NCBI GenBank assembly: GCA_964617655.1
Contig: CAZTXN010000004.1
Coordinates: 1 to 39,351, forward strand
DNA length: 39,351 nucleotides
Direction of reading: 5' to 3'
Origin: an uncultured Nitrospiraceae bacterium
Lineage (GTDB): Bacteria; Nitrospirota; UBA9217
Within the stretch, counting starts at the first letter, position 1. The number at the start of each line of letters is the position of its first letter. Shown piece after piece: positions 114-25,364 of this stretch. The notes under the pieces were generated by a model, which was not told the origin of the DNA, searched no databases, and was given only the letters and a program-made list of their open reading frames with translations. The position numbers and the translations under genes were made by a program.

Positions 114-236
114 AAATCCCAAATGACAAATCCCAAATAGCAAACAGCGTTCCCCTCCGAGCGGTCTCATGGTCCTACTCGTTGGCAATTGGAGCTTGGT
201 CATTATTTGGGATTTGTGATCTGGAGATTGGGATTT
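114..236. repeat. Heptamer-array inverted repeat (AAATCCC words)
   Basis: Five tandem 7-mers AAATCCC/AAATGAC/AAATCCC/AAATAGC/AAACAGC at 114-148. Complementary 7-mers GGGATTT/GTGATCT/GGAGATT/GGGATTT at 209-236. About 60 nt spacer. Lies between the upstream stop and the carB start. Confidence 0.75.
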
Positions 237-263
237 AGCATTATCGAAAGAGGTGTTCAATAC

Positions 264-3200
264 ATGCCGAAGAGAACCGACATCAAGAAGATCATGATCA
301 TCGGCGCCGGGCCGATCGTGATCGGCCAGGCCTGCGAGTTCGACTACTCGGGCGTCCAGGCCTGCAAGGCGCTGAAGCAGGAGGGGTACGAGGTCGTGCT
401 GGTGAACTCCAACCCGGCGACGATCATGACCGACCCCGAGATGGCCCACCGGACCTACATCGAGCCGATCACGCCGGCGGTGGTGTCCAAGATCCTCGAG
501 CGCGAGCGGCCGGACGCGCTGCTCCCGACCATGGGCGGCCAGACGGCCCTGAACACGGCGGTGAAGCTGGCCGAATCGGGCGTGCTGGACCGGCTCCAGG
601 TCGAGCTGATCGGCGCCAGGCTCCCGGCCATCAAGAAGGCCGAGGACCGCGAGCTCTTCAAGGAGGCCATGCAGCGCATCGGGCTCGATGTGCCGAAGAG
701 CGGCCTGGCCACGACGCTCGAGAAGGCCTACGAGATCCTGGACCACGTGGGATTCCCGGCGATCCTGCGGCCCGCCTTCACGCTCGGCGGCACGGGCGGG
801 GGCATCGCCTACAACCGGGAGGAGTTCGCGGACCTGATCATGCGGGGGCTGGACGCCAGCCCGGTGAGCCAGGTCCTGATCGAGGAGTCCGTGCTGGGCT
901 GGAAGGAGTACGAGCTCGAGGTGATGCGCGACGCCCGGGACAACGTAGTGATCGTCTGCTCCATCGAGAACCTCGATCCCATGGGCGTCCATACCGGCGA
1001 CAGCGTCACCGTGGCGCCGGCCCAGACCCTGACCGACAAGGAATACCAGATCATGCGCGACGCCTCGCTCCGCATCATCCGGGAGATCGGCGTGGACACC
1101 GGCGGCTCGAACATCCAGTTCGCCGTGGACCCCGGGAACGGCCGGATGGTCGTGATCGAGATGAACCCCCGCGTCTCCCGGAGCTCGGCGCTGGCCTCGA
1201 AGGCCACGGGCTTCCCCATCGCCAAGTTCGCGGCCAAGCTCGCCGTGGGCTACACGCTCGACGAGATACTGAACGACATCACCAAGGCCACGCCGGCCTC
1301 CTTCGAGCCGGCCATCGACTACGTGGTGGTGAAGTACCCGCGCTTCGCCTTCGAGAAGTTTCCCCAGGCCGATGCCACGCTCACGACGCAGATGAAGTCC
1401 GTGGGCGAGGCCATGGCGATCGGCAGGACCTTCAAGGAGTCCTTCCAGAAGGCGCTCCGGTCGCTCGAGATCGACCGCTACGGCCTGGAGTCCCGGCGCG
1501 ACCGGGACGGCGACGGCGAGGCCAACCAGGCCGAGGTGAAGCTCAAGATCGGCACGCCGAACTGGGAGCGCATCTGGTTCGTCGCCGACGGCTTCCGCAT
1601 GGGCATGACCGTGGAGGAGGTCTTCGAGCTTTCCAAGATCGATCCCTGGTTCCTCCACCAGATCCGGCAGATCGTGGAGCGCGAGGCCGCGGTCCGCGAG
1701 CAGGGAGCGGGCCTCCTGGCCCCGGCGGACCCAACGATGGTCCATCCGCTCCGGACGGCCAAGGAGATGGGGTTCTCGGACCGGAGGATCGCGCGGCTCC
1801 TCACCACCACCGAGGATGCGGTGCGGAAGGCCCGCGCGGAGCTCGGCATCCTGCCGGTCTTCAAGACCGTGGACACCTGCGCGGCCGAGTTCGAGGCGAA
1901 GACGCCGTACCTCTACTCGACCTATGAACGGCCGTTTATGAAGCTCAAGGAGACAGGAGACAGGAGTCAGGAGTCAGAATGTGAAGCAAATCCGACACAG
2001 AAAAGGAAGGTGGTCATTCTTGGCGGCGGGCCGAACCGCATCGGCCAGGGCATCGAGTTCGACTACTGCTGCGTGCACGCGTCCTTCGCCCTGAAGGAGG
2101 ACGCCTTCGAGACGATCATGGTGAACTGCAACCCCGAGACGGTCAGCACGGACTACGACACCTCGGACCGCCTCTATTTCGAGCCCTTGACTCTCGAGGA
2201 CGTCCTGCATATCATAGAACGCGAGCGCCCGGTGGGCGTGATCGTCCAGTTCGGCGGCCAGACGCCCCTCAAGCTCGCGGTCCCGCTCGAACAGGCGGGT
2301 GTCCGGATCCTGGGAACCTCGCCGGACAGCATCGACCGCGCCGAGGACCGCAAGCGGTTCAAGGAGCTGCTCGAGAAGCTCGGGCTGCAGCAGGCCGAGA
2401 GCGGCACGGCCGTCTCCTGCGAGGAGGCCGTGGAAGCGGCGAACCGGATCGGCTACCCGGTCATGGTCCGGCCGTCCTACGTGCTCGGCGGCAGGGCCAT
2501 GGAGATCGTCTATGATGAGACCAGCCTCCGGGACTACATGAGCCGGGCCGTGAAGGCCTCGCCCGACCGGCCGGTGCTCGTCGACCGGTACCTCGAGGAC
2601 GCGGTCGAGATCGACGTGGACGCCATCTGCGACGGCACGGACGTGGTGGTGGCGGGCATCATGGAGCATATCGAGGAGGCCGGGGTCCATTCCGGCGACT
2701 CGGCCTGCTCGCTCCCGCCCTTCTCGCTCCCGCCCTCCACGGTCGGGGAGATCCGGGGCCAGGCGCGGGCGCTGGCGCTCGAACTGGGCGTGGTCGGCCT
2801 GATGAACATCCAGTTCGCGGTGAAGGACGGCGTGATCTACGTCCTCGAGGTGAATCCCCGCGCCTCGCGCACCGTGCCCTTCGTGAGCAAGGCCATCGGC
2901 GTGCCGCTCGCCAAGCTGGCCGCGCGGGTCATGGCCGGAAAGACCCTCGCCGAGCTGGGGTTCACCCGGGAGGTGGAGATCCAGCACGTGGCGGTGAAGG
3001 AGGCGGTCTTCCCGTTCAGCAAGTTCCCGGGCGTGGACACCCTCCTGGGCCCGGAGATGAAGTCCACCGGCGAGGTGATGGGCATCGATACGGACTTCGG
3101 CATGTCCTTCGCCAAGTCCCAGATGGCGGCGGGCAACCCCGTGCCGGACGCGGGCCGGGTCTTCATCAGCGTGAAGGACAAGGACAAGCCGGCGGCCTAC

Positions 3201-3548
3201 GAGGTCGCCGCGGGGCTCCAGCGGGCGGGCTTCTCGCTCGTGGCCACCCGCGGGACGGCGGAGTACCTCCGGCAGCGGGGCATCACGGTCGAGACCGTGA
3301 ACAAGGTCTTCGAGGGCCGGCCGCACATCGTGGACAGCATCAAGGACCGCCAGGTCGACCTGGTGATCAACACGGTCTACGGCGCGGAATCCCAGAAGGA
3401 CTCCTACTCGATCCGGCGGACCACCCTGACCCAGGGGATCCCCTACTTCACCACCATGCAGGCGGCCAAGGCGGCGATGCGGGGCATCGAGTCGCTCAAG
3501 GCCAAGCCGCTGGAGGTCACTTCCCTGCAGGAGTATCAGGTGCGATGA
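264..3548 (+). CDS. carB: Carbamoyl-phosphate synthase large subunit
   Basis: Two ATP-grasp halves: [21 protein letters not shown]... and [23 protein letters not shown]... Also YSTYE...ECEANP linker and MGS-like C-terminus. ATG 264 is preceded by GAAAGAGG. The ORF-track start at 189 lies inside the repeat element. Confidence 0.97.
1948..1975. repeat. In-frame tandem heptamer array (AGGAGAC x2, AGGAGTC x2) inside the carB inter-half linker
   Basis: Direct reading gives aggagac aggagac aggagtc aggagtc. The same word family occurs in the array at 20234-20289. It encodes part of [10 protein letters not shown]. Confidence 0.8.
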
Positions 3549-4027
3549 GCAAGAAAGTACCCATGACGAGGGACGGCTACGACAAGCTCAAGAAGGAGCT
3601 TGACCACCTGCTGAAGGTGGAGCGTCCGAAGAACATCAGGGACATCGAGGAGGCCCGCGGCCACGGCGACCTCTCGGAGAACGCGGAGTACCATGCCGCC
3701 AAGGAGCGGCAGGGGCATATCGATGCGAAGAAGCGCGAGCTCGAGCACAAGCTGGCCCATGCGCAGATCATCGACACCTCCAGGCTCTCGAACGAGAAGG
3801 TGGTCTTCGGCACCACCGTGACCGTTGCGGACACCGAGACCGGCGACACCAAGCGGTTCACCCTCGTCGGCCAGGAGGAGGCGGACATCAAGCGGGGCAA
3901 GATCTCGGTCCAGTCGCCCGTCGGCAAGGCGCTGATCGGCCACAAGGCCGGGGACACCGTCAAGGTCCGGACGCCGGCCCGGCTGGTGGAGTACGAGATC
4001 CAGGAGATCGAGATTGCCGCCGGGTAG
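3545..4027 (+). CDS. greA: Transcription elongation factor GreA
   Basis: [13 protein letters not shown]...[16 protein letters not shown] motif. 160 aa. ATGA overlap with the carB stop. Confidence 0.95.
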
Positions 4028-24381: not shown

Positions 24382-24423
24382 GAGGCTGCAGAGACATCCC
24401 CTATATTTATTAACGAGGACCGG

Positions 24424-25176
24424 ATGAGATCCCGCACCGAATCCATCATCCTCGGCAGCATGCACCTCGGCGAGGCGGACAAGCTCGTCACGTTCTTCTC
24501 CCTCGACCGGGGGAAGCTCCGGGGCGTGGCCCGGAACGCCCGCAAGTCCTTCCGCCGCTTCGGCGCGGGACTCGAGCCCTTCACCCACTGCCGCCTGCAG
24601 CTCTACGAGCGGGAGCACCAGGAACTGCTGCGCATCGAGTCCGCCGAGATCCTGACCCAGCACTTCACCCTGGCCTGCGACCTGGACCGCCTTGCCGCAG
24701 CGGCGCCCGCCCTGGAGCTCGTGCGGGAGCTCGCGCCGGAAGGGGAGCGCAACGCGGCGGTCTTCCTGCTGCTCGGCCATATCCTGAACCTGCTCGAGAC
24801 CTCGCCGGACCCGCTCTTCCTGCTCCGCATCTTCGAGATCCGGCTGCTCTCGCTGCTGGGCTACCAGCCCAAGCTCGACCGGTGCCTCTCCTGCGGCAGC
24901 CCGGCGGACCGGCGGATGGTCTTCTACGGACCCAAGGGCGGCGTGCTCTGTTCCGCCTGCCTCGCGGCAGACGGGGACGCAGAGCTTACGGTCTCGCCCG
25001 GCGCCGTGGGGTTCTACTACCATGCCCTGCGCATGGACCTGGACAAGCTCACCCGCCTGCGGCCTTCGGCCGCGATCCTGCGCGAGCTCGACCAGGCCCT
25101 CTCGACCCACTTCCTCCATATCCTCGGCCGCAGGCTGCGGTCCGCGGCCTTCCTGCGTTCGCTCTGCCGGCCCTGA
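24424..25176 (+). CDS. recO: DNA repair protein RecO
   Basis: N-terminal OB fold (GEADKLVTFFSLDRGKLRGVARNARKS) and zinc-finger cysteines CLSCG...VLCSAC. 250 aa. Confidence 0.9.
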   Translation: MRSRTESIILGSMHLGEADKLVTFFSLDRGKLRGVARNARKSFRRFGAGLEPFTHCRLQLYEREHQELLRIESAEILTQHFTLACDLDRLAAAAPALELVRELAPEGERNAAVFLLLGHILNLLETSPDPLFLLRIFEIRLLSLLGYQPKLDRCLSCGSPADRRMVFYGPKGGVLCSACLAADGDAELTVSPGAVGFYYHALRMDLDKLTRLRPSAAILRELDQALSTHFLHILGRRLRSAAFLRSLCRP

Positions 25177-25201
25177 TATTGTTGATGAAGCCGAAAGAAC
25201 C

Positions 25202-25364
25202 CTGAGCGCACCACTGAGGCACGGAGGGCGCGGAGAAAGACCGCTGCCTTGCGGAAGGGAATTCTTCGTGTCACGGTGCATCAGCAGCAGGCGCCGACCT
25301 TTCGAATGACTTCCCGATCGCTTTGTTCTCCGATAGATCGCAGATGATCGCAGGATCGCAGCGG
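25202..25364. repeat. Imperfect hairpin (CTGAGGCACGG.../...CACGGTGCATCAG) plus GATCGCA repeats
   Basis: Arms at 25202-25239 and 25263-25292 are partly complementary. GATCGC(A) occurs at 25316, 25336, 25346 and 25354. Lies in the convergent recO/lnt intergenic region. Confidence 0.5.

Follow-up and report, generated by a model that had tools for sequence, protein, structure and literature searches.

The window analyzed here is a 39,351-bp contig (G+C 65.7%) from an uncultured Nitrospiraceae bacterium, and its gene junctions carry tandem arrays of short words, mostly of 7 nt, which at four places face an array of the complementary word across a loop and form a long hairpin. Such arrays and hairpins persist at orthologous sites in related genomes while the word turns over, and the two arms co-vary. 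The gene map, based on third-position G+C, Pfam and called genes from syntenic contigs, places an upstream gene ending at 110 (stop codon 108–110) ahead of carB (264–3548), greA (3545–4027), pyrK (4014–4859, assigned by its Pfam domains) and pyrD (4856–5818). Further along lie a GGDEF protein gene (18604–20235, + strand), rmuC (20293–21393, − strand), nadA (21475–22470, − strand), era (22614–23594, + strand), a DedA/VTT protein gene (dedA; 23749–24381, + strand), recO (24424–25176, + strand) and lnt (25371–26954, − strand).

Arrays were called with Tandem Repeats Finder and, independently, with a self-match scan over periods 4–12. In the self-match scan the period-7 scores were 42, 20, 17, 14 and 11, and all other periods scored 10 or less; the strong short-period tandem repeats of the window are of period 7 alone. 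Five period-7 runs were found against 0.39 expected from 100 dinucleotide shuffles (maximum 2), and in the window the pattern is thus more frequent than in shuffled sequence. A sequence-only reading of this DNA had described at least eight intergenic loci that share one architecture and differ in word. Tandem Repeats Finder reported period-7/8 arrays at all of these loci except 23599, with unit identities within arrays of 89–97% and at least seven different words, so the arrays and the change of word between loci stand. The single architecture stands in part: array, loop and complementary array occur at four loci, three others hold an array only, and the locus at 23599 is weak. Folding, scored as an RNA z-score against 200 shuffles per locus, divides them in the same way, with z from −3.4 to −5.9 at the four hairpin loci and from −0.9 to +1.4 at 20234, 1948 and 25335. 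The loci are intergenic apart from 1948–1977, which lies in carB, and 4822–4899, which spans the pyrK/pyrD overlap. The spacers inspected between 25.4 and 39.3 kb are without arrays of this sort.

The first hairpin precedes carB. Its left array (114–144, + strand) starts 4 nt past the upstream stop codon and consists of the 7-nt words CAAATCC and CAAATGA in a 14-nt super-unit, which Tandem Repeats Finder reports either as (AAATCCC) at 114–138 or as a 14-nt unit at 114–144. The complementary right array of ATTTGGG (204–236, + strand; 205–236 by Tandem Repeats Finder) ends 28 nt 5′ of the carB ATG (264), with an AAGAGG ribosome-binding site in between. The core arms (119–139 and 204–224) are 90% complementary, and the segment 108–242 folds into a stable long hairpin (−46.7 kcal/mol, z −3.65). 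At the second hairpin the two arms belong to overlapping genes, since pyrK stop and pyrD start share the ATGA at 4856–4859. Five copies of GTGCGGA (4822–4855, + strand) encode the PyrK C-terminus and place GGAG motifs 5′ of the pyrD ATG (4856), each repeated GGAG being followed by a 6-nt spacer to GUG or AUG. The opposing array, (ATCCGCA)x4.3 (4870–4899, + strand), is complementary with one mismatch per unit and encodes an N-terminal extension of PyrD; the pyrD start codon thus sits in the hairpin loop and the complementary arm within the first pyrD codons. The segment 4815–4905 forms a stable long hairpin (z −4.05).

The other two hairpins flank nadA. The gap from the nadA stop (21475) to the rmuC start (21393) holds a hairpin at 21402–21471 (− strand), which pairs (GTACAGA)x4, called at 21404–21431 by Tandem Repeats Finder, with TGTGCTC/TGTGCCC/TGTACTC; the fold of 21396–21476 is a stable long hairpin on either strand (z −5.9 on the + strand and −4.9 on the − strand). 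In the hairpin on the other side of nadA (22488–22571, − strand), which had been read as arrays of the 7-nt word ACAGGAT, Tandem Repeats Finder gives a unit of 8 nt, with TGACAGGA x3.2 (22490–22516) facing ATCCTGTC x2.1 (22553–22569); the arms are 95% complementary and the fold of 22484–22590 is again long and stable (z −3.4/−4.0). Arm lengths differ approximately by whole units, as had been proposed (5 versus 4.3 and 3.2 versus 2.1 units). A promoter-like site, TTGACA-17-TATTAT (22600–22628, − strand, 11/12 matches), precedes nadA. Every orthologue keeps it, at a distance of about 9 nt from the ATG that suggests a nadA mRNA with no leader or almost none. In the window alone, an insertion of about 113 nt separates this conserved promoter from the ATG (22470), and because the hairpin lies inside that insertion it would make up most of a new nadA 5′ leader. 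The array word GGATGACA of this leader resembles the promoter's own GGATTGACA. Elsewhere in the window are a perfect TTGACA-17-TATAAT promoter (12/12) at 34769–34797 on the + strand and a canonical intrinsic terminator at 31380–31357 (− strand, a 10-bp stem followed by a T-run) after a small gene at 31392–31709; judged by these two sites, the organism appears to rely on transcription signals of the standard sigma-70 type.

The remaining loci of the window are arrays or weak structures. The word AGGAGAC occurs at two sites. At the first, (AGGAGAC/AGGAGTC)x4.3 lies inside carB (1948–1977, + strand) with no complementary array (z +0.2 for 1935–2010). The second (20234–20285, + strand) begins at the GGDEF stop codon and runs between convergent genes as (AGGAGCC)x2 followed by (AGGAGAC)x5, or x7.4 by Tandem Repeats Finder with 97% unit identity; it is enclosed in a GGAGCC/GGCTCC stem (about 20231–20294) and likewise has no complementary array (z −0.9/−0.2 for 20225–20300). 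A weak array of GATCGCA(G), AGATCGCAG x3 with irregular spacing (25335–25361, + strand), lies between the convergent recO and lnt and shows no folding signal (z +1.4/+0.9 for 25300–25370). From the era stop (23594) to the dedA start, an AT-rich weak hairpin phased by CAAnnnn (23599–23732, + strand) gives marginal z values (−1.3/−2.2 for 23595–23735) and no tandem array by Tandem Repeats Finder.

Stable stems directly after stop codons, together with the 20234 array in its short GC-rich stem between convergent genes, are what intrinsic (Rho-independent) terminators or attenuators would be expected to offer, and terminators were among the roles the sequence-only reading had suggested. However, no hairpin is followed by a T-run, and a terminator scan reports none of them although it does detect the canonical terminator at 31380–31357. 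Moreover, one hairpin holds a start codon and another stands between a promoter and its gene. We therefore consider this explanation very improbable.

Relatives were collected in two ways. A query of metagenomes with RmuC gave about 50 contigs with RmuC 73–84% identical, and look-ups of PyrD homologues gave syntenic pyr-cluster contigs; the PyrD homologues in metagenomes are 77–90% identical, and the few with names are labelled as Nitrospiraceae or Nitrospirota metagenome-assembled genomes, which by itself would make an uncultivated Nitrospirota source probable. Individual contigs are given below by L numbers. As a control set we used 80 loci from a NadA scan, which are distant relatives (at most 56% identity among the matches listed). 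The NadA of the window itself has no exact match in the contig index. In the nadA–rmuC gap, almost every relative has a word-built hairpin and the word differs: AGTTCAA/TGAACT, AGTACAG/GTACT, GGAGTTC/GAACTCC, GACACGGG, GACAAGG/CCTTGTC, CACGAAT/ATTCGTG, CACGAAGG/CCTTCGTG and CAAATnn (L100, L101). The nearest relatives have similar words, and in L089 the gap is only 20 nt long. At the pyrK–pyrD junction, relatives pair GTGCGGA, ATGCGGA or ACGCGGA with ATCCGCA, ATCCGAA or TTCCGAA, and L166–L169 have a GAAGGTA/TACCTTC hairpin instead. The era–dedA gap contains CGCAGAT/ATCTGCG, CGCAGAG/CTCTGCG, GGTTAC/GTAACC, GTGCGGA, a hairpin of the CAAAT type, or nothing, and additional word arrays are found in other gaps of the relatives. 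Across 0.44 Mb of related contigs, periods 7–9 dominate among the arrays. Comparison of orthologous sites, which had been proposed as a check for unit-number variation, thus shows that both the unit number and the word differ in relatives.

The variable junction arrays explain the N-termini of many PyrD homologues, of which MRNAECGMRN is an example of a translated array. For some predicted N-termini (e.g. MRNAECGMRNK), the residues are probably a translated array and not part of the real protein. Among homologues P0001–P0120, PyrD as called spans 299 to 337 residues, a spread that comes largely from gene callers putting starts variously within or upstream of the array.

We then compared the rates of change in the nadA–rmuC gap with those of rmuC third codon positions. 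The closest pair differs by 6.8% in the gap and 12.3% at third positions; for more distant pairs the values are 32–53% and 27–40%, respectively, with many indels in the gap. With divergence near the third-position rate, the primary sequence of the gap would be nearly unconstrained. Structure is nevertheless retained despite this synonymous-rate change: 14 of 28 orthologous gaps have z below −2.5 on the sense strand and 17 of 28 on the antisense strand, with extremes near −9. The arms match each other better than they match those of other genomes, as cognate arms pair with a mean of −25.2 kcal/mol compared with −16.7 kcal/mol when right arms are taken from other orthologues; in 7/28 cases the cognate arm is the best partner, and in 14/28 it is among the top three. 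Nor is the inverted pairing in relatives a matter of chance. Among 130 dereplicated arrays in related contigs, 32 have a reverse-complement partner within 200 nt, compared with 2 for reversed and 0 for complement-only controls; in unrelated bacterial loci (1.3 Mb) the corresponding figure is 12 of 185 arrays versus 5–6 in controls. The flanking genes differ by 15–25% between relatives, and since array units are up to 97% identical, the arrays appear to be much younger than the divergence of the contigs.

Retention of structure under such sequence change would be expected if the hairpins were mainly selected as mRNA stem-loops, with tandem words only the way in which stems grow; their possible roles include (i) protection of 5′ or 3′ ends, (ii) RNase III sites between cistrons and (iii) masking of ribosome-binding sites with translational dependence. 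Four hairpins do lie between co-directional genes and span the spacer from just past one stop to near the next start, the placement of GGAG and ATG in stem and loop at pyrK–pyrD is retained in PyrD homologues of about 80–90% identity, and unpaired purine-rich arrays are sense-oriented beside starts. The pyr-cluster hairpins also fold better on the sense strand in 10/10 cases tested. In the nadA–rmuC gap, however, it is the antisense strand that folds better in 22 of 28 orthologues (119 versus 60 G-U pairs), and in both clusters, compared over the nadA–rmuC gaps of L083–L127 and the pyr-cluster gaps of L161–L170, the better-folding strand, richer in G-U pairs, is the + strand of the window regardless of the direction of transcription. 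The asymmetry therefore tracks the chromosome strand, as might be expected if mutation differed between strands or if a structure formed at the DNA level; with a GC skew of only +0.024, the window does not reveal which strand is leading. Because the two clusters conflict, we rejected sense versus antisense folding as a test of RNA-level selection. Selection on mRNA is further opposed by short hairpin-free gaps in L089 (nadA–rmuC) and in L097, L109, L110, L122 and L141 (era–dedA), and by hairpins and arrays within a reading frame and between convergent genes. On balance, mRNA selection as the main cause seems to us unlikely, though it is the chief alternative. A purine-rich 5′ arm, present in 19 of 21 array hairpins of related loci, was considered as a special signature and discarded, because control genomes share this bias, if more weakly, in their ordinary perfect inverted repeats (86 versus 48).

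Some words recur at unrelated sites and across genomes, namely those of the GTGCGGA type (about 16 arrays), GGGTCAA, CGCAAAG, CGCAGAT, CGCAGAG and CAAAT. Unpaired GTGCGGA arrays are in sense orientation and adjoin start codons at 5/5 independent sites. A limited vocabulary shared across sites and genomes could mean that the arrays serve as multimeric binding sites and that some protein recognizes their units of about 7 nt. Candidate readers would be CsrA (through GGA motifs), ribosomal protein S1 or cold-shock proteins on RNA, or an iteron- or operator-binding protein on DNA, and similar proposals exist for the TAACTGA repeats of Beggiatoaceae and the heptamers of Nostoc (PMC4679880; bioRxiv 10.1101/2022.06.06.494920). 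GGA or AGGA is present in many of the purine-rich words (GTGCGGA, AGGAGAC, ACAGGAT, GACAAGGA, GAAGGAA), but about half of all words lack GGA (AGTTCAA, GTACAGA, CAAATCC, CGCAAAG, CACGAAT, GGGTCAA). A fixed regulator could not tolerate the change of word at orthologous sites, and motifs read in single strands would be buried once an arm paired with its complement, so that we judge a dedicated reader of the arrays to be improbable.

A set of AT-rich hairpins of the form CAAATnn...nnATTTG, with 61% mean identity that includes a caaataatatccaa block, occurs at non-orthologous sites in different genomes: window 114–236 and 23599–23732, L162 12086–12226, L100 1398–1554, L101 9362–9492 and the era–dedA gap of L102. 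A profile built from five of them retrieved zero further copies with nhmmer in about 2 Mb. Their scattered placement, the discrete insertion that holds the nadA-leader hairpin relative to all orthologues, and two similar hairpins that flank nadA in the control genome L060 are the features one would look for in a small non-autonomous mobile element, whether a miniature inverted-repeat transposable element (MITE) or a repetitive extragenic palindrome (REP) or REPIN moved by a RAYT transposase. In enterobacteria, imperfect palindromes known as REPs and bacterial interspersed mosaic elements (BIMEs) occupy spacers between cistrons and in 3′ untranslated regions and act as stem-loops once transcribed into mRNA; REPs exist in many copies with a shared palindromic consensus of about 35 nt, are spread by the RAYT transposase and do not consist of tandem 7-nt words. 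The present hairpins likewise are palindromic elements in intercistronic spacers, but they are built from tandem words and have no consensus. When each hairpin was searched with blastn and nhmmer against the window and about 2 Mb of loci, bare words were all that recurred, with no further full-length copies, and no terminal inverted repeat with a clear target duplication is evident at the nadA-leader insertion. The genes identified in the window, where reading frames were not all scanned, include no evident RAYT gene or other transposase. Since the word also changes gradually along the phylogeny at one site, we regard mobile-element copies as quite improbable. That the sequence-only reading did not recognize them as REP/BIME, MITE or CRISPR is consistent with our tests: besides the lack of dispersed full-length copies, Rfam 15 gives no match at or above the gathering threshold in the whole window, and the units are 7–9 nt and directly adjacent, compared with CRISPR repeats of 23–50 nt with unique spacers.

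Some arrays lie inside a reading frame. In an alignment with E. coli CarB (1bxr_A), CarB of the window has a 15-residue insertion between E548 and E549, an inter-domain linker largely encoded by the AGGAGAC array. In relatives the linker is encoded by (GTGCGGA)4 plus (AAGGCGG)3 or by (GGGTCAA/GGGGCAG)4, and in L163 by a complete in-frame hairpin, (ATTCAAG)4-loop-(TTGAATn)4. The segment between YSTYE and ECEANP is a hot spot of in-frame heptamer arrays with another word in each relative (window 1924–1977, L161 7040–7093, L162 7074–7104, L163 1571–1630 and the L168 linker); it is 13 to 28 residues long in this group and essentially absent from E. coli CarB.

A DNA-level origin of the arrays is likely, because the arrays and the L163 hairpin are in frame in carB and the nadA hairpin lies in a discrete insertion. 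The interpretation we favor, at even odds (a probability of roughly 0.5), is that they arise by heptamer-biased slippage in insertion-tolerant DNA, with hairpin arms that evolve together; slippage and arm-to-arm copying are the inferred steps. In the Nitrospirota lineage, simple-sequence repeats of about 7 nt (sometimes 8–9 nt) would be generated and continually remodelled through replication slippage, and would accumulate in tolerant places such as intergenic and intercistronic spacers, first and last codons and a flexible protein linker. Where an array falls in or beside an inverted repeat, both arms would evolve together, probably through arm-to-arm copying (fold-back or quasi-palindrome template switching) or through selection for pairing, and the outcome would be a long hairpin with periodic mismatches and a locus-specific word that drifts with time. 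The hairpins would be transcribed within 5′ leaders and intercistronic spacers, and some may have been co-opted, for example at the pyrD ribosome-binding site; there, folding of the stem would shield GGAG and the pyrD start codon, and a ribosome completing pyrK would be expected to open it. Slippage or templating had been proposed from the window letters and is supported by the near-identical units, the difference in unit number and word between relatives and the in-frame CarB linker arrays.

Several observations weigh against origin by slippage with co-evolving arms. The near-identical contigs L166–L169 show no copy-number polymorphism and a single base substitution, slippage alone does not explain how a complementary array forms, and plain slippage does not predict a small vocabulary that recurs across sites and genomes. 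The vocabulary may reflect convergent selection on words that resemble ribosome-binding sites, word-dependent slippage rates or copying between sites. The 5/5 sense GTGCGGA arrays beside starts point to an RNA-level or translational constraint, and persistence at orthologous sites could come from selection instead of continual regeneration. A more far-reaching reading, which we regard as doubtful, would take the word-array hairpins as a distinct class of self-renewing structured elements across several uncultivated phyla: fixed sites would be long held while words turn over, a restricted vocabulary would move between sites, and the elements would either act at the RNA level, through masking of ribosome-binding sites and stop–start apposition that couples translation, or be made by a dedicated templated process.

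Beyond the close relatives, control contigs labelled Gemmatimonadetes (L079 3320–3400 and 9005–9085), PVC group (L060 8075–8170, 9785–9905 and 11108–11230) and Nitrospinae (L001 5865–5950) have the same array-loop-complement hairpins, with the words CACAGAG, GGAGTGRT, GAATATCGAA and CAATGAG, and a contig labelled delta proteobacterium has (GGGCAGT)x14.6 directly upstream of nadA (L025 9786–9887). The design is therefore not limited to Nitrospirota. A small conserved gene of the window (18186–18503, no Pfam match) is preceded in relatives by a sense (AGTGCGG)n array that ends at the ATG (L101 10987–11015, L117 11375–11402, L093 3861–3889, L089 2825–2846); in the window itself, two decayed units are left at 18160–18190, GGTGCGGTCATGCGGA, and they include the start codon of this gene.

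These arrays show that bacterial intergenic DNA can keep a shape, the long periodic hairpin, even as all of its sequence is exchanged, and they offer a clean natural instance of concerted evolution between the arms of a palindrome. They are a fast supply of new 5′ leaders, intercistronic structures, N- and C-terminal protein tails and linker insertions, as at the essential genes carB, pyrD, pyrK and nadA, and gene callers set starts and stops inside them. Strains of uncultivated Nitrospirota could be told apart by the changing words of their orthologous spacers. If the hairpins set translation ratios, such as that of PyrK to PyrD, the purpose of bacterial heptamer repeats becomes directly testable.

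The sequence-only reading overlooks a precedent: the known kind is the bacterial heptanucleotide simple sequence repeat, here in a hairpin-forming variant. Tandem units within the 5–11-nt range occur beyond chance, and copy number and sequence vary at the same locus between relatives. A family with a single genome-wide word, like those of Xanthomonas, Beggiatoaceae, STRR or Geobacter, does not describe the window, which has at least seven words and a partially shared vocabulary. STRR is reportedly the name given to the Calothrix repeats by Mazel et al. in 1990. G-quadruplex heptamers with at least four G3 tracts do not fit either, as 204–236 has two GGG runs and other window words none; the GGGTCAA/GGGGCAG arrays of L162 and L168 carB would contain the four tracts. 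GGGATTT differs from the plant telomere unit TTTAGGG, and an integron attC site, an imperfect palindrome behind a cassette gene with RYYYAAC and GTTRRRY boxes at its ends, for which no pattern search was run, seems unlikely given the core housekeeping flanks and the absence of an integrase from the gene map. Full-text literature searches found no description of paired word-array hairpins for Nitrospirota.

In many bacteria, long simple sequence repeats are, as reported in outline, most often built from heptanucleotide units, with polymerase slippage as the proposed cause (Mrazek 2007; PMC4679880, PMC4692102). The present arrays are like them, as far as that outline goes, in an over-represented period of about 7 nt, a mostly intergenic location and copy number and sequence that vary between relatives, and unlike them in that a quarter of the arrays face their complement in a long hairpin and that the words are locus-specific. 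The GGGAATC repeats of Xanthomonas occur between the same neighboring genes from one related species to another, with varying length and sometimes as inverted pairs (PMC4692102). These and the GGGGA(T/C)T repeats of Nostoc include, as here, some inverted pairs with potential stem-loops (Rehm et al. 2015, PMC4692102), but such pairing is occasional there and common here, and both have one dominant G-rich word with G-quadruplex potential, whereas we find many words, most without four G-tracts. Among cyanobacteria, Calothrix PCC 7601 has three tandemly repeated heptanucleotides (as cited in PMC4692102) and Nostoc has several heptamers near start codons (bioRxiv 10.1101/2022.06.06.494920), with a function that is unknown or regulatory. 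Several words per genome and arrays near or overlapping starts are shared features; in cyanobacteria, however, each word is reused at many loci and a systematic hairpin arrangement is not described.

The genome of Geobacter metallireducens contains classes of heptamers and octamers located in genes as well as between them, and some classes form pairs on opposite strands (Aklujkar et al. 2009, PMC2700814). Four or five tandem units of 7–8 nt and opposite-strand pairs at variable distance are common to both, but each Geobacter class has one genome-wide consensus (e.g. GGACCGG or MTYCTGA) and was read as the site of a global regulator, in contrast to the locus-specific words here. The TAACTGA arrays of Beggiatoaceae lie directly upstream of starts, often without a canonical ribosome-binding site, and a translational role was proposed (MacGregor 2015, PMC4679880). 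They adjoin start codons as some of ours do, but they consist of a single word with one indirect repeat among 170 sets (PMC4679880), unlike the word-rich paired arrays of this lineage. The tandem repeats of Borgs evolve rapidly, arise independently and within genes create new disordered protein segments, according to the abstract of Schoelmerich et al. 2023 (PMC9879509). On that account the CarB linker arrays are comparable to the in-gene repeats of Borgs, although Borgs are archaeal extrachromosomal elements and hairpin pairing, as seen here, is not mentioned in the abstract. What sets the present arrays apart from known heptamer repeats is thus (i) systematic hairpin pairing, (ii) locus-specific words that turn over and (iii) the lineage itself, for which we found no earlier account of the paired-hairpin form or of words that turn over at fixed sites.

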